Below are positions 4,485 through 15,267 of a DNA stretch of 30,298 bases, piece after piece. The notes below the pieces were generated by a model that was not told the origin of the DNA, searched no databases, and saw only the letters and a program-made list of their open reading frames with translations. The stretch is taken from IMG/VR virus record IMGVR_UViG_3300032295_000278, positions 1-30,298 of that record; one strand, given 5' to 3'. Each line of letters starts with the position of its first letter. The stretch's first letter is position 1. This DNA comes from a virus. Its lineage: Duplodnaviria > Caudoviricetes. The position numbers and the translations under genes were made by a program.

Positions 4485-5012
4485 TTAAATTAAGTTATAA
4501 TCTTGGTTGTTGTAATCTTCGTAGTCTTCTCCTACGTTTTCTCTTAGTCTTTCTTTGCAGTTTTTAATCGTGTTAAATATCGAAGTCAAGCTGATGCCTG
4601 TATCCTTAGCTATATCTCTCATCGATGCGTTGCCTTCCTTGTATACTTTGAATAACATTGAATCGTACCAATGCCAACTGCTAATCTCGTTTTCTATCTT
4701 ATCGTAAATGGTAGAATATGATTCGTGTTTTTCTAAGTCCGTCTCCTCGTAGCATTCTTTGACCTCGTCAAGTGAAACTAAGTTCATCGAGTTTGCTCTT
4801 AGATAGTCAACGTGAACTGCTCGGATTGAAAGCCACATATAAAACTTGTTTAGGCTTCCGTCATCTTTTACCACTCCATCGATATAGTTAAGACGTATGA
4901 TTCTCAAGTATGTTTCTTGAACGATGTCCTCAGACAGTTCTCCTATGCCCATTTTCTTGGCCATTAGTAGCCATTCTTTATGGTTTTGTCCGAGTATTTG
5001 TAGTTTTTCCAT
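4485..5012 (-). CDS. RNA polymerase sigma factor, ECF/sigma-70-like
   Basis: Region 2-like 'SEDIVQETYLRI' and region 4 HTH 'SMRDIAKDTGISLTSIFNTIKNCKERLR'. 175 aa is a typical ECF size. Confidence 0.8.
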   Translation of the reverse strand: MEKLQILGQNHKEWLLMAKKMGIGELSEDIVQETYLRIIRLNYIDGVVKDDGSLNKFYMWLSIRAVHVDYLRANSMNLVSLDEVKECYEETDLEKHESYSTIYDKIENEISSWHWYDSMLFKVYKEGNASMRDIAKDTGISLTSIFNTIKNCKERLRENVGEDYEDYNNQDYNLI

Positions 5013-5027
5013 TGGTTAAATTCTAAA

Positions 5028-5057
5028 CAAATATAAAACTAATTTTTAATCAAGCAA
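5028..5057 (-). promoter_or_regulatory. Bacteroidota housekeeping-type promoter for the sigma/terminase operon
   Basis: TTG-N19-TATATTTG matches the Flavobacterium -33/-7 consensus TTG-N19-TAnnTTTG. Confidence 0.75.
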
Positions 5058-6141: not shown

Positions 6142-6320
6142 AGTTCGTCTTTTTGTATTGGTCGTAAATCATAAGCAATGCAAATCAATCCTAAGAATGT
6201 CATATCTGCGATAACAAATGGCGTTGTATACCTCATTACAATTGCATCAACAATTGGCAACTTAACATCGTGACTTTTTAAATAATCTTCTAAGTTTTTT
6301 CTTGCTTCTTCTTTTGTCAT
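6138..6320 (-). CDS. Hypothetical protein
   Basis: 60 aa, coupled by ATGA overlaps at both ends. Confidence 0.6.
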   Translation of the reverse strand: MTKEEARKNLEDYLKSHDVKLPIVDAIVMRYTTPFVIADMTFLGLICIAYDLRPIQKDEL

Positions 6321-6997
6321 AGCATTTGAATTAGTGCGTTATAATACTCACGAGCAAGTTCAATCTTTTCTTTTATCTGCTCAATTACTTGTTCGTCTTT
6401 TTGTACGTAGAAAACTTTGACTCTGCGGTTCTTGGGAATGTGTGAAAACTGATGCTTACTCTCTACCTCTTCACGCAAATCTAAGTCCTCGTCAATCTTG
6501 TGTAGTTTCCAATGTGCTCTGCGGATTTCGTCTTCTACCATATCAAGTGGAGTATCTACAAGGCAGTAGCAAAGCATCGATTGAGTCTTTCCTGTAAGCC
6601 ACATATATCCTTGAAGTTGATAAAAGTAGTCCTTGTTAGGAATTTCGGTATCAAAAAACGGAAAGGTAGTAGCATCCCAAGAGCTTTTTACGTCAAGCAA
6701 TACATCCTCCGTGTTTACGTCAGGTGTTCCTGTTATCCAATCGTTCTCAAAATACTCCTCATTCTTGTAGATAAATTTGACGTCTAAGACATCATTTACT
6801 AACGATATAGATTCGTCTTCAACTTGGATGCCTTTGTCCGTGTAACGTGAGCTAAACTCCTTACGGATACCGTATTTATGCTCAAGAACTAACTCGTGGA
6901 TGTAAGTTTTAGCAGTCTGAGATAAGAACTCACCTTTAGAGCGAGGTGTAGCCATCATTTTACCGATAGCTGAACACCTAATTTTGAGAGCTTTCAT
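6317..6997 (-). CDS. YqaJ/lambda-exonuclease-like nuclease
   Basis: Motifs RCS, KG...E, GTPD, DVKSSW and YFYQLQGYMWLTG of the PD-(D/E)XK lambda-exo family. It is adjacent to ERF. Confidence 0.8.
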   Translation of the reverse strand: MKALKIRCSAIGKMMATPRSKGEFLSQTAKTYIHELVLEHKYGIRKEFSSRYTDKGIQVEDESISLVNDVLDVKFIYKNEEYFENDWITGTPDVNTEDVLLDVKSSWDATTFPFFDTEIPNKDYFYQLQGYMWLTGKTQSMLCYCLVDTPLDMVEDEIRRAHWKLHKIDEDLDLREEVESKHQFSHIPKNRRVKVFYVQKDEQVIEQIKEKIELAREYYNALIQML

Positions 6998-7509
6998 AGA
7001 GCGTTAAGGATATCAATTTGACCATCAGTTAACGAGAATGATGCTTCGAGCTTCTCACGTGTGTACTGTCCATTTGAAATGGATGTTACTGCTGCTTGAA
7101 ATCTCTTAGCGTCAATTGCAGGAAGTTTCTTTACTTGCTCTCCTGATGCATCCGTGTCTTTGTCCGTTACAAGTCCCAAAGCAGAGCTTAAAGCATATCT
7201 ACGGTAGTAAGTAACTCCTGAACCAAAAGACTGAAAGTCGTTCATACCTTTCAACTGAACGTAAGGAATGGCACATTCTGATTCGATGAACTCTCCACTA
7301 TCGTGAAAGATTGTAGTCTTTAGGCAGTTTTGCCCATCTACTAAAGTTAACTGCTGAGTGAATCCAAGTCCGTGTTTTTTTAAGATTGGATTGATTACAC
7401 TCAAGATTTTAGGTAAGTCAGAGTAAGAATAACCATAACCTTGTGTTGCCTTGTGAATCACAGGCACTTCTTGTTGGAATGAAGCCAACGATTTAAATAA
7501 ATTTTTCAT
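6994..7509 (-). CDS. erf: ERF-family single-strand annealing protein
   Basis: ERF signature 'Q.FGSGVTYYRRYALSSALGL..D.DTD'. The true start is probably 7509 (MKNLFK), because 7533 lies inside the promoter. Confidence 0.85.
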   Translation of the reverse strand: MKNLFKSLASFQQEVPVIHKATQGYGYSYSDLPKILSVINPILKKHGLGFTQQLTLVDGQNCLKTTIFHDSGEFIESECAIPYVQLKGMNDFQSFGSGVTYYRRYALSSALGLVTDKDTDASGEQVKKLPAIDAKRFQAAVTSISNGQYTREKLEASFSLTDGQIDILNAL

Positions 7510-7521
7510 AGCGTAATAATT

Positions 7522-7539
7522 TGTTATATGCAAATATAA
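7522..7539 (-). promoter_or_regulatory. Bacteroidota-type -7 promoter element for the recombination genes
   Basis: TTATATTTGCATATAACA is an 18-mer identical to the promoter at 14088-14105. There is no clear -33 TTG. Confidence 0.65.
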
Positions 7540-7911: not shown

Positions 7912-8419
7912 CTTTTATCTTTTGTTTGTAGGTTTTGATTATATCTTGTAACTCATCTGCTGAATATCTCCGTGTTTCGTTAGCACGTTTACTTAATTCA
8001 TTTAATTTATCCTCTCCAATGCGTTTAATTAAACCATCACGGTAGTTAAGTAGGTTTCCGTGTTTGAATTGGTTACAGGTTACGCATTGAGCGTGTACGT
8101 TATCTTCGTCAAATGTGACTGCTTTATGTCCACCCATAGAATATAAATGTCCTGCGTCATACTTAGTGCCGAGTTTTTGTCCACAACTTACGCAAGGTTT
8201 GTGCTTATCACGTAATCGGATGTACTGATTGAATACTTTTTGAGCTTCTTTCATCCAATCTGAAGTGGTTTTAAGCTCGTTTTTCATACGAACCTTAGTC
8301 TGCTTCCACATTTTCTCTTTTGTCTCTGCTACAAAGGCTCTGATACATTCGTCTTTTAGGCAGTATTTATGGTTGAAGCGTATGGGCTCAAACTTATCTT
8401 TGCAGTTTTTACATCTCAT
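7898..8419 (-). CDS. ninG: NinG/Rap recombination endonuclease
   Basis: N-terminal CKNC, 'AQKVFNQYIRLRD', CVSCG, DAGH and NVHAQCVTCN. Confidence 0.88.
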   Translation of the reverse strand: MRCKNCKDKFEPIRFNHKYCLKDECIRAFVAETKEKMWKQTKVRMKNELKTTSDWMKEAQKVFNQYIRLRDKHKPCVSCGQKLGTKYDAGHLYSMGGHKAVTFDEDNVHAQCVTCNQFKHGNLLNYRDGLIKRIGEDKLNELSKRANETRRYSADELQDIIKTYKQKIKDAAQ

Positions 8420-9071
8420 AATCAAAAATTGACGTCTGATTTACATCTGATTTTTTAATTATTCCTAAAGCTGTTTGTAGTATTGTTTTACCAGCTTCAT
8501 AGTCTACCAGATTACGAGCCATTTTTCGTACGCTTTGACTTCCTTTGTATTTAGTAAAATCATAGTCGTGATAATTTGACAAGGCCTCTATTAAATTTTT
8601 CGTCCTTGATAAATCAGGGTTTTTTCTTCCATTTAAATTATTTGGTAATGTAAAATTTGTCCAGTACAAATGCCTATCTCTTTGTTGTCCTTTAATCAAA
8701 GGTTCGTAATAAGGAATAACATTCTCCACACAATACTTACCTTTAAAAAAAGTGTCTAAAAAAATAATTTCCTGGTATAATTTCATGTCAGGATATTGCG
8801 GTCTCCAGCTTTCGCGTGTGTATTGGCTTATCTGTATTCTGCTATGCGTTGGACAAGGTGGTGAACTCCATATAAAATCAAAGTCTTTATAATGGTCTAA
8901 CAAGTATTGGTGTGCGTCCGCAACAATTACTATATCATTTGGAAACCTTTCTTGGTACAATCGTGCAGCTTCAGGGTCAAGTTCTATTGCTGTTATATCT
9001 AAATTGTCAGCAACCTCATCCCATTTGTAACGATTGCCACCTAAACAAGCGTATAAGTTTAAAATCTTCAT
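8409..9071 (-). CDS. C5-cytosine DNA methyltransferase-like protein (compact)
   Basis: Motif I LNLYACLGG, motif IV SPPC, motif VI ENV and motif VIII-like RDRH. It is only 220 aa. Confidence 0.75.
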   Translation of the reverse strand: MKILNLYACLGGNRYKWDEVADNLDITAIELDPEAARLYQERFPNDIVIVADAHQYLLDHYKDFDFIWSSPPCPTHSRIQISQYTRESWRPQYPDMKLYQEIIFLDTFFKGKYCVENVIPYYEPLIKGQQRDRHLYWTNFTLPNNLNGRKNPDLSRTKNLIEALSNYHDYDFTKYKGSQSVRKMARNLVDYEAGKTILQTALGIIKKSDVNQTSIFDYEM

Positions 9072-9082
9072 AGCGTTTTATT

Positions 9083-11501: not shown

Positions 11502-11903
11502 TCATTTAGTTGCTTTTGTTGAAAACTCTCCGTTTCTTATTCGTTCTTGAAGACTGCATAGCTCGAAGTAGTTTTGGCATTTTAAGACTGCTTCTTCGAT
11601 TTTACTCAGCTTAGAAATAGACGGAGTCAGATACAAGAAGTCTTCAAATTCTACTATGTAAGAAGATACGTAATCTAAGAATACTGCATCTTTCTTGATG
11701 CTATTGTACAAGTTCAATCCGTTTATGATTGTAGCGTGAGTCCTATTAAATAGCTCTCCGGTTTTTGTCAATGAGTATCCGTGTTTTTGCATTAGGTGGT
11801 AAATAAATGCTCTCTGATAAACCATCTGCTGAGCTCTGCATTCTGAGTCAAGCTCGTCTCGTTTTATGACCTCTTTGACTTTCTCTAATAGTTGCTCTCT
11901 CAT
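11502..11903 (-). CDS. DNA-binding protein with a DnaA C-terminal-like HTH
   Basis: 'SLTKTGELFNRTHATIING' resembles the DnaA domain IV signature SL..IG..F.RDH.TV. Confidence 0.6.
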   Translation of the reverse strand: MREQLLEKVKEVIKRDELDSECRAQQMVYQRAFIYHLMQKHGYSLTKTGELFNRTHATIINGLNLYNSIKKDAVFLDYVSSYIVEFEDFLYLTPSISKLSKIEEAVLKCQNYFELCSLQERIRNGEFSTKATK

Positions 11904-12571: not shown

Positions 12572-12714
12572 ATTTCCGTTAGTTTAAATTTACCGTCATT
12601 GTATCTTCCTGTTTCTATCAAGTCCATCTTTTTCCAATAGCATAGACTCTTTGATGTGAATATCCACTCTTGCACCGTAACAAGTCCTACGTGGTATGTT
12701 AGTTTAAATCTCAT
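12568..12714 (-). CDS. Small hypothetical protein (48 aa, not in the ORF track)
   Basis: MRFKLTYHVGLVTVQEWIFTSKSLCYWKKMDLIETGRYNDGKFKLTEI fills the gap and has an ATGA overlap with the MTase. Confidence 0.6.
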   Translation of the reverse strand: MRFKLTYHVGLVTVQEWIFTSKSLCYWKKMDLIETGRYNDGKFKLTEI

Positions 12715-13267
12715 CTTTAAATAATTTTAATTGCTTGTCATATTCTTCAACAGTCATAAGTTTACTAAATGAAATAAACGAACCTAACAAATGCGCATCA
12801 AATTCGTTTTTTCCTCGTTTACCTAACATTAAATAACCGTCTCTAATAACTACATTTCTAACATCCATTTTAGCCAATGGCAATAACCAAATATGCGCTT
12901 TTTGTTTTAACTTATCAAAGTATTCAATAGAATTTAAAATTTTTAAATATGTCGGAGATGCGTAATAATATGATGCTCTAACAAAATAATAATCTGGATT
13001 CATTGCAAATTGAACATCAAATTGATTTAAAATTAAATCATCCCTTTGTTTACTAATTCTCATTTCTATATACTTATTAGTATCTATTTTTTCTTTAGCC
13101 ATCATATTGTATGCTTCAATATCATAATTTATGTCTTTAATATAAATTTGAATTTGAGCATCGACTCCTCCAATTAGTTTATTTGGTTGTCTATAATCAA
13201 AATAATTATCTTTTAATTTACAAACACGTTTAAACGTTTCGTTATCTTTTTCTAATAGGTATCTCAT
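12704..13267 (-). CDS. Hypothetical AT-rich accessory protein
   Basis: 187 aa, visibly more AT-rich than its neighbours, with no recognised motif. Confidence 0.6.
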   Translation of the reverse strand: MRYLLEKDNETFKRVCKLKDNYFDYRQPNKLIGGVDAQIQIYIKDINYDIEAYNMMAKEKIDTNKYIEMRISKQRDDLILNQFDVQFAMNPDYYFVRASYYYASPTYLKILNSIEYFDKLKQKAHIWLLPLAKMDVRNVVIRDGYLMLGKRGKNEFDAHLLGSFISFSKLMTVEEYDKQLKLFKDEI

Positions 13268-13371
13268 AGCGTGTTGATTTTAATTTCGCAAATTCGGTTA
13301 TAAAGGTCAAAGTCGAAGTTATCCCAATAACGATTCAACTGATAGTTTCTAAACAAACCAAGACTCCTCAT
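13264..13371 (-). CDS. Small hypothetical protein
   Basis: Probably only the last 35 aa (MRSLGLFRNYQLNRYWDNFDFDLY...) of the 87-aa track ORF; the rest overlaps the upstream gene. Confidence 0.4.
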   Translation of the reverse strand: MRSLGLFRNYQLNRYWDNFDFDLYNRICEIKINTL

Positions 13372-13660: not shown

Positions 13661-13898
13661 ATTTTCTATTATAAACTCCTTGTGCATATTTAGACCAATC
13701 ACCTTTCAATTCGTAGGTCTGTTTTTCTAATTGTGTATTCTCCGTCTTTACGTCAAGTACAGGAGGTGTGTTTGTAGCACATAGCCAAATAATGATTGAT
13801 GCTATCGGTACAAAAAAGATTGCGAAGTGTCTAAACACGTTCTTATCTTCCTCTTCGAGCTCTTTCCACTCTGCTTTGATTTCGTTAAATGTTATCAT
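13650..13898 (-). CDS. Single-pass membrane protein
   Basis: Hydrophobic segment FAIFFVPIASIIIWLCA. Confidence 0.6.
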   Translation of the reverse strand: MITFNEIKAEWKELEEEDKNVFRHFAIFFVPIASIIIWLCATNTPPVLDVKTENTQLEKQTYELKGDWSKYAQGVYNRKYGK

Positions 13899-14073
13899 TT
13901 TCGTTTAAATTTAGTTCTACAATATATGATAAGTCTGCTGCGGTTACGTATCTTGCACGAGCCATCTTGGTCGCTTCGTGTTCAATTCCAAATACCGTCT
14001 CAGCGTTCTTTAATGCTCCCCAAAGTTTCTCTTGTTCTTGGTTTAGCATCTTAATTAATTCTTGTTTTTTCAT
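13885..14073 (-). CDS. Hypothetical protein, first gene of the early operon
   Basis: 62 aa, just downstream of a consensus promoter. Confidence 0.65.
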   Translation of the reverse strand: MKKQELIKMLNQEQEKLWGALKNAETVFGIEHEATKMARARYVTAADLSYIVELNLNENDNI

Positions 14074-14087
14074 AGCGTTTGTTTAAA

Positions 14088-14126
14088 TGTTATATGCAAA
14101 TATAAACACTTATTCGTAATTATCAA
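14088..14126 (-). promoter_or_regulatory. Early promoter (Bacteroidota housekeeping sigma)
   Basis: TTG(14126-14124)-N19-TATATTTG(14104-14097), with an upstream A-tract. Confidence 0.8.
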
Positions 14127-14168: not shown

Positions 14169-14193
14169 AAAAAAGCCCCCAATTAAGGAGGCT
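14169..14193 (-). terminator. Intrinsic terminator ending the late operon and candidate sRNA
   Basis: AGCCTCC-TTAATTG-GGGGCT hairpin followed by a T tract. Confidence 0.8.
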
Positions 14194-14220
14194 CTTACGC
14201 TATGTGTAGTGGTTAGGTGT
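14169..14220 (-). ncRNA. Candidate ~50-nt small RNA antisense to early-gene start codons
   Basis: The -7 element TATATTTG is at 14229-14222, followed by ...CCACTACA-CATAGCGTAA-G and the terminator. The seed is the reverse complement of ACGCTATG, found at four gene starts. Confidence 0.5.
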
Positions 14221-14229
14221 ACAAATATA

Positions 14230-15267
14230 CTAAAAAATGTGAGTTAATCTCGCTACTTGGCCAAATTCTTTATGGTGAATGAAGCCCTCAACTGCTTTAG
14301 GAACGTGTGCGTAACCGTTTCTATGATGCCAAGAGTCCGTTCCTGATGGACTTCTAAGCGATTCTACCGTGACTCCGATGTAATCTTTACTTGTTTTATG
14401 GTGTACGTGATGCGTATAAACGTAGCGATGTTTAGTTTCTGACCATTCTAAAGGAAACTCAGTAGCCATTAATAAAGGTAAGTCTTGATGTTTCGCTCCG
14501 TCTCCGTGAGTCGTGCCGATAAGGTTCTTTCCGTATTGGAAACTTTTTCTATGTGCAATAGAACAATCAAAAGTAATGTTCTTGCAGTCTCTAAACCAAG
14601 TCTGAATAACGTCAGCAAGAAAGAAACCGTGTGTATAATCGTGATTAGAGGGATTGAAAGTGAAATGAACATCAGCCAACCCAATAAGTTTTTCAAGAAT
14701 TTCGACATAGAGTTTTTTAGCGATTAAGAAATTAGAGTACCACATACCATCCGTATCTTGTGGAGTTCCTGAAGTTGTAGTCCGTCTTGGAGTATCGATG
14801 TGTAAGATATCGTTTCCGCCTATAAATAGAATCTTGTCTATATGAAACCCACTTGCTTTATCTATAATGCCTTGCACGCCCTCTAAGACTCTTTGTACTG
14901 CTATTTGATTGTTATATACTTCTCCTACCTCAAAAGCATCGCAGAGCTTTCCTATGTGGATGTCAGCAGGGTCTATTACTAATAAGTGTCCGTCTTTTTG
15001 CTCATTTCGTTGCAAATTAGGATACATCGGAACGTGTCTGCTGATTTCATCTAAGATACTCGTGCGAATGTTCTCGTAGTTCTGCTCTTCCTGTTCCTTG
15101 AAGTTTGGATTCTTAAAGAAAAGTGAAGCGTTTTTTGATTTTAGCCATCCGTGTTTTACGTCTTTGTCATCTAAGCCAAGTCCGTTGGATTCAAGTTTGA
15201 TTGCTCGGTAGGAATTTAAAATTTCAATCTCATCGTCTTGCAATCTAAAGCGTGTTTGTTTATTCAT
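14230..15267 (-). CDS. Calcineurin-like metallophosphoesterase
   Basis: Metal-binding motifs DIHIG, GGNDILH, SNHD, HGD and HHVHH appear in order. Confidence 0.8.
   Translation of the reverse strand: MNKQTRFRLQDDEIEILNSYRAIKLESNGLGLDDKDVKHGWLKSKNASLFFKNPNFKEQEEQNYENIRTSILDEISRHVPMYPNLQRNEQKDGHLLVIDPADIHIGKLCDAFEVGEVYNNQIAVQRVLEGVQGIIDKASGFHIDKILFIGGNDILHIDTPRRTTTSGTPQDTDGMWYSNFLIAKKLYVEILEKLIGLADVHFTFNPSNHDYTHGFFLADVIQTWFRDCKNITFDCSIAHRKSFQYGKNLIGTTHGDGAKHQDLPLLMATEFPLEWSETKHRYVYTHHVHHKTSKDYIGVTVESLRSPSGTDSWHHRNGYAHVPKAVEGFIHHKEFGQVARLTHIF

Follow-up and report, generated by a model that had tools for sequence, protein, structure and literature searches.

A predicted small RNA at the late–early border of a Bacteroidota phage has a seed that co-varies with the start regions of the phage's own early genes

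A promoter–terminator unit behind the last late gene

The window, by which we mean the whole stretch of DNA that was analysed, spans an entire virus record (Caudoviricetes; IMGVR_UViG_3300032295_000278) of 30,298 bases with a 123-nt terminal repeat, and because of this repeat the genome is probably complete and circular. The minus strand holds all long genes, which run from a structural and lysis block through an early block (methyltransferases, a DnaD-like gene, helicase, NinG, ERF, exonuclease and SSB) to a sigma-like gene and the terminase. PHROG recognised no integrase or repressor among the 54 proteins, 24 of which have no PHROG family. A related portal is found, among cultured phages, only in the Nonlabens phages P12024S/L (36% identity). 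A distant structural module (25–43% identity) sits within a 222-kb host contig of G283, which makes integration possible in the wider lineage; in this copy (G283:C4:165000-195000) the portal match is split and a long gap precedes the terminase, and it is possibly a decayed prophage. Several late starts (25169, 23955, 21328 and 2220) have the word ACGTCT a few bases 5′, a candidate late-promoter element; the recurring word in the late leaders of P12024S is a different one, CGTTA.

The late block ends with a gene whose stop codon is immediately followed by a short unit, and the features here are, in the direction of transcription:

14230..15267, minus strand: upstream gene, 345 aa, PHROG 'DNA repair exonuclease'; closes the late block and ends with a stop codon that abuts the box
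14222..14229, minus strand: −7 promoter box TATATTTG, of the form TAnnTTTG, adjoining the stop codon of the last late gene
14169..14217, minus strand: predicted small RNA of about 49 nt, its start placed from the position of the box
14195..14204, minus strand: seed CAUAGCGUAA, mostly unpaired, abutting the terminator stem
14169..14196, minus strand: intrinsic terminator, with a stem of 14192-14187 paired to 14180-14175 and a U-tract at 14174-14169

The promoter boxes of this genome are of the Bacteroidota TAnnTTTG type, following the consensus given in PMC9723704, and four of them stand on the coding strand between called genes ahead of a gene or unit, namely the unit's own and those of the genes starting at 14073, 7509 and 5012. 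The 5′ end of the predicted RNA follows from the expected location of the box at −12 to −5 relative to the start (PMC9723704). The fold of the unit has a z score of −4.16, with none of 200 shuffles as good, the 8-nt core of the seed has an unpaired probability of about 0.5–0.9, and the same terminator (14169..14196) also ends the late operon. A preliminary description of this DNA had located the box (14229-14222) and the seed (14204-14195) at these same positions, with a terminator behind them; the hairpin core is at 14192-14175 and the U-tract at 14174-14169. At E ≤ 5, the window yields no Rfam match to the unit. A cis-antisense RNA or type I antitoxin was also considered and is rejected, as no gene is overlapped on the opposite strand: the antisense ORF from the unit's ATG has 4 codons in the window, and the corresponding ORFs of relatives have 1–120 codons and are not conserved.

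The unit is widely kept among relatives. Through the upstream gene 80 loci were found and 79 read (L049 was omitted, as its match ends early), and 71 of the 79 have the unit, 69 directly behind the stop codon (two of them cut by the contig end) and 2 behind an inserted gene. In the latter (L004, L047) an ORF separates the last late gene from the unit, which is intact about 700 nt beyond. The other 8 loci have a different backbone and contain neither the unit nor ACGCTATG, the start-codon word to which the seed is complementary. In a second set, anchored on ERF and made up of 63 loci with at least 7 kb upstream each, the unit is present in 62; the strict unit filter missed it in 30 of the 63 and mis-called it in two (L705, L611), and looser scans recovered all except L674, where ERF carries ACGCTATG and the 8.5 kb scanned contain no unit. 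The box reads TAnnTTTG, in a non-coding position, in 81 of the 84 first-set phages. In a group with another upstream gene it is mostly TAnnTTAG, and such variants, for example TAAATTAG, stand in 20 of the 20 units examined; because the box is degenerate there, an independent promoter is uncertain for this group of at least 20 phages. The terminator differs in sequence among relatives with its hairpin kept, and the upstream gene is likewise exchangeable. The predicted RNA measures about 37–60 nt across the family, the seeds fall into about 12 types, and in the shortest units the seed starts at the predicted +1. Six runs with shares of 0.05–0.10 came up as candidate RNA evidence; the four examined consist of contigs of relatives, and no transcript was seen in them. 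We regard the unit as a real and probably functional phage sRNA gene, the RNA itself being predicted.

Two further observations concern the unit and its surroundings. Four loci (L663, L665, L730 and L733) carry, about 3 kb upstream of ERF, a second and longer promoter–terminator unit, G+C-rich and about 85 nt long, which has no anti-AUG match to ERF. The 5′ tail CCUAACC (window 14217-14208, minus strand; loci L042, L043, L055-L058), dispensable and present in many type-A RNAs, complements GGUUAGG of one C-type seed extension and, by resemblance, GGUUAG stretches in several host-type units. GGUUAGG is uncommon on the coding strand of the phages themselves (5 copies in 510 kb), and the complementarity may be due to chance or may reflect an anti-sRNA function.

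Early start regions and their co-variation with the seed

Downstream of the unit, the early promoters and the start regions considered as targets are as follows:

14097..14104, minus strand: early promoter box P1
14071..14078, minus strand: start of the first early gene (gene 13885-14073, 62 aa), proposed primary target, with co-variation
13265..13272, minus strand: start of a 187-aa gene (gene 12704-13267), probable secondary target, exact 8-mer
9069..9076, minus strand: start of the C5 methyltransferase gene (gene 8409-9071), probable secondary target, exact 8-mer
7531..7538, minus strand: early promoter box P2
7507..7516, minus strand: start of the ERF gene (gene 6994-7509), proposed primary target, 10-bp match, with co-variation
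5012..5035, minus strand: third promoter box (5028-5035) and start of the sigma-like gene (gene 4485-5012), unmatched by the RNA

The ERF gene is identified by Pfam PF04404, and the sigma-like gene by a weak match to sigma factors (E 5.8e-4). The first early protein has no PHROG, Pfam, cultured-phage or fold match beyond a generic helical hairpin.

The word ACGCTATG occurs five times in the window, four times on the minus strand, at the ATGs of the genes starting at 14073, 13267, 9071 and 7509, and once on the plus strand, within the unit. These four coding copies and one antisense copy compare with a mean of 0.60 expected by chance, and none of 100 shuffles reaches five. The count by strand bears out the preliminary description, which had the word exactly at four early AUGs, nowhere on the coding strand away from starts and at no late start; its letters are likewise correct at ERF (10-nt match), at 6320 (G:U pair) and at 6997 (2-nt bulge). 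When the window's 54 start regions are ranked by duplex energy, the four ACGCTATG starts take ranks 1–4, a result equalled by 8 of 500 shuffled seeds. The duplexes are only 8–10 bp long, with a net pairing of −12.8 kcal/mol at ERF, −12.1 at the first gene, −9.6 at 13267 and −9.2 at 9071; the values are −8.5 at 6320, −3.1 at 6997 and −1.8 at the sigma-like gene. The sites at 6997 and 6320 had also been proposed as targets, and neither follows the seed type. At 6997, AACGC.CTATG lies within the last codons of ERF and is constant across seeds (p = 0.95), and this site is not supported; the site at 6320 overlaps the last codons of the exonuclease gene and is also unsupported (p = 0.42) despite its net pairing.

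Whether these starts depart from the default initiation context can be judged from a Flavobacterium sample (G001, 400 kb), in which the full word ACGCTATG stands at 0 of 319 starts. The earlier argument from G at position −3 does not carry this point by itself, for G is not rare there (56 of the 319 starts, with A in 156). In class-A phages the word is found at 96 of 629 early versus 2 of 336 late starts, and 98 of its 105 coding-strand copies are located at starts.

Co-variation of seed and start region across related phages had been singled out in the preliminary description as decisive. In 84 distinct phages, the start region of each gene family was scored for pairing with the seed type of its own phage and with those of others, and the types were permuted. 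Of 33 families tested only two pass, the first early gene (−13.2 kcal/mol with own versus −10.6 with other-type seeds) and ERF (−14.9 versus −10.0), each at p = 1e-4, the floor of the test. The next-best families reach p values of 0.012 and 0.036, the corrected threshold being 0.0015. Grouping by upstream neighbour gives borderline values for a handful of other early starts, among them the one behind the DnaD-like gene (p = 0.0014); the start following family 11, which is the case of the C5 methyltransferase, has p = 0.004, above significance after correction. In a first held-out set, ERF again pairs better with its own seeds (−13.8 versus −8.0, p = 2e-4; 27 phages, 7 types) when the mis-called L705 and L611 are excluded, and p is 5e-5 with both included (29 phages); the first early gene gives p = 0.008 (18 phages). 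In a second held-out set, the true assignment for ERF ranks 1 of 720 (20 phages, 6 types).

The ERF proteins themselves fall into deeply split clades with several seed types each, and the leader tracks the seed instead. All 34 phages with the matching seed have the leader ACGCT at ERF, and none of the 25 without it does. Among path-disjoint pairs on the ERF tree, the own seed is better in 8–9 of 9 and worse in none (median sign-test p 0.004), although some of these pairs may reflect swaps of ERF rather than changes of seed; on the tree of the HTH gene, ERF is better in 5 of 6 and worse in none, the first gene stands at 5.1 versus 0.8, and four control genes are mixed. Seed types change 8 times on the HTH tree versus 33 times when shuffled, and 13 times on the ERF tree; because they follow lineages in this way, independent events are few. 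A binary AGCGU/ACGCU test yields 3 pairs on the ERF plus exonuclease tree and 2 on starred branches of the ERF tree, too few for significance, and in a strand-mirror test for G:U pairing the controls behave as the targets do. Compensations within single phages are visible in L054, L147, L158, L580 and L728. The co-variation at the first early gene and ERF, repeated for ERF in two held-out sets, supports the earlier proposal that a (predicted) small RNA acts in trans on early start regions of the phage itself.

Across the family, mean pairing at promoter-proximal starts is −13.3 kcal/mol for the first gene (n = 52), −15.3 for ERF (n = 40) and −5.1 for the sigma-like gene (n = 15), and most accessory genes inserted behind an early promoter pair at −11 to −16. 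The 98 tagged starts of type-A phages divide into 59 at the two core genes, 16 at other promoter-proximal genes and 23 at internal ones. Since promoter-proximal early starts pair strongly and dominate these tags, we take the core of the targets to be the cistrons that open the two early operons, surrounded by a variable fringe. The dispersed early regulon originally envisaged is borne out insofar as early starts are targeted; its co-varying core, however, comprises only the first cistrons behind the two early promoters. Judged from their sequences, the starts at 13267 and 9071 are plausible secondary sites; the family of the 187-aa gene at the former has just 2 members. Pairing at or next to the AUG is the invariant of the motif, whereas the word ACGCTATG, or even CAU, is not. 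The type H seed has no CAU and pairs with the 14–16 nt immediately 5′ of the AUG, a region that matches the one in which adenines at −3, −6 and −11 to −15 aid translation (PMC7366714).

A proposed brake on early genes and the alternatives

We consider it likely, from the sequence comparisons above, that a minimal trans-acting sRNA represses both early operons via the start regions of their first cistrons. The RNA would be made from the host sigma-A-type box, from the 3′ end of the late transcript, or from both. It would pair over or just 5′ of the AUG in the first early gene, ERF and some further early genes, and by analogy with FopS and GibS (see below) this pairing would block ribosome loading. 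With first cistrons as targets, the rest of each operon would presumably be damped as well, and the sigma-like gene, with its own promoter, would be spared. The most likely role is that of a protein-free brake, by which early genes would burst and then shut down as the RNA accumulates. The seed types could also define exclusion groups, each keeping out co-infecting phages with the same seed type; because no integrase was found, an early shut-off timer is somewhat likelier than immunity. The diversity of seed types fits exclusion groups, but drift with compensation would yield it too. More tentatively, Bacteroidota phages might widely use an anti-start-codon RNA instead of a protein repressor, with seed types as RNA-defined exclusion groups, and if so, a resident phage would silence incoming phages of its own type only, with the late activator spared.

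The alternative that survives best keeps the same pairing mechanism with a different source and timing: the seed would belong to the end of the late mRNA, either as its 3′ tail or as a fragment processed from it, and late transcription would turn off early translation directly. The location of the unit directly behind the last late gene's stop, the terminator common to both and the degenerate box in one phage group would be in agreement with this, as would the derivation of one FopS member from a 3′ UTR (PMC11697453). However, a non-coding TAnnTTTG is kept in nearly all first-set phages (81/84), TAnnTT persists even in the variants, and the shortest units have their seed starting exactly at the predicted +1, features that argue for a start at the unit's own box; we therefore hold a purely 3′-tail origin to be unlikely.

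It is less probable still that host mRNAs, such as those of SusC/TonB receptors, are the main targets and the match to phage leaders is secondary. FopS does act on susC leaders and a copy of it is reported in a phage (PMC11697453), and the U/G-rich seed types look like generic Bacteroidota leaders; in a proxy host, 0–15 of 319 starts rival the ERF leader for 10 of 11 seed types, and 69 do so for one. Targets in the host alone would nevertheless give no reason for two phage leaders, separated by 7 kb, to follow the seed across about 12 types.

We give slightly less credence still to the matched words being DNA operators of a phage protein, present in inverted orientation in the unit. The phage does encode a DnaA_C-type HTH protein (11502-11903), candidates might also hide among the 24 of 54 proteins without a PHROG family, and the strand-mirror test for G:U pairing does not separate targets from controls; yet type-A phages share the word across several deeply divergent HTH clades, the matches include bulges and shifted registers, and operators give no account of an ORF-less promoter-to-terminator unit or of the anti-AUG bias in unrelated phages. 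Equally improbable is that the unit is an early leader in inverted form that has no function and has stayed similar through recombination or common descent. Such a reading could draw on the phage's own recombination genes (ERF/exonuclease), on the likeness between the leaders of its two early promoters and on seed types that follow lineages; but the matches are short and imperfect and exclude the promoter flank, control genes of the same lineages do not co-vary, and 62 of 63 loci retain the unit despite exchange of its hairpin and upstream gene.

An sRNA acting on the first cistrons of the early operons would bear on early-gene timing, or on kin exclusion, in Bacteroidota phages that have no recognisable repressor. 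The naturally matched pairs of seed and leader make the mechanism testable by reporters alone, with no need for phage culture, and they would serve as small orthogonal translational switches in a phylum that does not use Shine-Dalgarno control.

Known regulatory RNAs and similar units elsewhere

Few phage-encoded regulatory RNAs have been described so far (10.1101/2024.10.31.621285). The closest likeness is to FopS of Bacteroides (Rfam RF04319), for which blocking at the start codon has been demonstrated; it targets susC leaders, at a first cistron it lowers the downstream genes too, one of its members is derived from a 3′ UTR, and in the cited account its copy in a phage is treated as a vehicle of spread and not as self-targeting (PMC11697453). 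FopS has the same layout of promoter, seed and terminator (PMC11697453), and the earlier statement that no described system is built in this way was too strong: the phage unit also has the sigma-ABfr box TAnnTTTG (81/84, with variants in one group), followed by a single-stranded 5′ seed antisense to a start region and by a terminator. The two differ in that FopS forms multicopy paralogues, whereas the phage unit is the one antisense copy in its genome, is phage-encoded and shorter, has the phage's own early leaders as targets and comes in about 12 co-varying seed types. Furthermore, the RF04319 model finds no match in the window at E ≤ 5 and none in 9 loci of the family at E ≤ 10, with the controls L421 and L444 scoring 81–82 bits. 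Binding by RbpB and silencing of susC-type mRNAs also belong to the traits of FopS.

GibS of B. thetaiotaomicron is trans-encoded and places an unstructured 5′ seed across the start codons of mRNAs without a Shine-Dalgarno sequence (PMC7366714); its promoter is non-canonical (PMC11697453). It is a host metabolic regulator with an extended seed of 30–50 nt (PMC7366714), and in these respects it differs from the phage unit. A trans-acting mode and an unstructured 5′ seed over start codons are what the two share.

Among phage antisense RNAs of immunity, the CI RNA of P4 is grouped with c4, and the heteroimmunity of P1 and P7 operates through matched changes of seed and target. The c4 antisense RNA of P1/P7 occludes ribosome-binding regions of its own mRNA and confers superinfection immunity, its specificity coming from short variable loops of an RNA of about 77 nt with three stems that is cut by RNase P (PMC5320573). 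As in c4, a short seed and a target of the phage itself change together in our unit. In contrast to the three stems and about 77 nt of c4, which belongs to temperate enterobacterial phages, the unit has one hairpin, 49 nt and no Rfam match.

Further regulatory RNAs encoded by phages are known. Lambda PreS/LPR1 is Hfq-associated and mainly host-directed, OOP is cis-antisense, and VpdS of a Vibrio phage acts on host and phage mRNAs (10.1101/2024.10.31.621285); STnc6030 of BTP1 is cis-antisense and excludes the self phage (PMC7067206). In the accounts cited, none of these four is described as a start-codon seed that co-varies with early leaders. Our search of the literature, whose coverage of subscription journals is thin, found no Bacteroidota phage sRNA directed against its own early starts. 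As proposed, the unit works like FopS and GibS, co-varies like c4 and belongs to neither family; what is new here is the co-variation test over many seed types with held-out sets, together with the first-cistron pattern.

A scan of viral contigs for box plus terminator, in which CAT was not required, gave at least 113 distinct matches, some of them mutually related. Among the matches listed (113), the hairpin is strong in 45, and 44 have a single-stranded stretch of 10 nt or more. These 44 units among the matches listed contain CAT in 26 cases versus 11.2 expected (0/500 shuffles) and CATAG in 9 versus 0.7, and ATG is depleted (8 versus 19.8); such an anti-AUG bias in units not selected for it points to a class that is common but unannotated. 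When 21 units from 20 unrelated phage groups were compared with their own starts, 4 matched at p ≤ 0.001 (initially 5 of 22, before the self-match L205 was dropped), the loci being at most 20 kb long and some of the units FopS-like host-type RNAs. The same pattern in bacterial genomes gave 120 matches, of which 64 bear a hairpin, 57 of these in Bacteroidota, and it recovered FopS from host genomes (2 of 6 tested loci). By the strict filter the unit was undetected in three G073 phage contigs and in the G283 module. P12024S has a promoter–terminator unit near its late–early border, which lacks CAU and matches no better than shuffles (209/300).

Comparable arrangements are also seen outside the family. 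Another phage family (L160, L164, L167, L176, L186-L188) has two different anti-AUG promoter–terminator units, which lie in opposite orientation and are separated by a few hundred bases; neither matches the phage's own starts significantly in the 14 kb tested. Loci of Chitinophagaceae type (L416, L425, L433, L435, L445, L447, L449, L465, L468) share a conserved FopS-like unit with a different seed extension, which in L416 stays below every Rfam gathering score. In an unrelated phage group (L335, L285, L338), the unit is very short, with a single-stranded part of 16 nt, and its complement ACGATTATG stands at 2–4 starts per locus.
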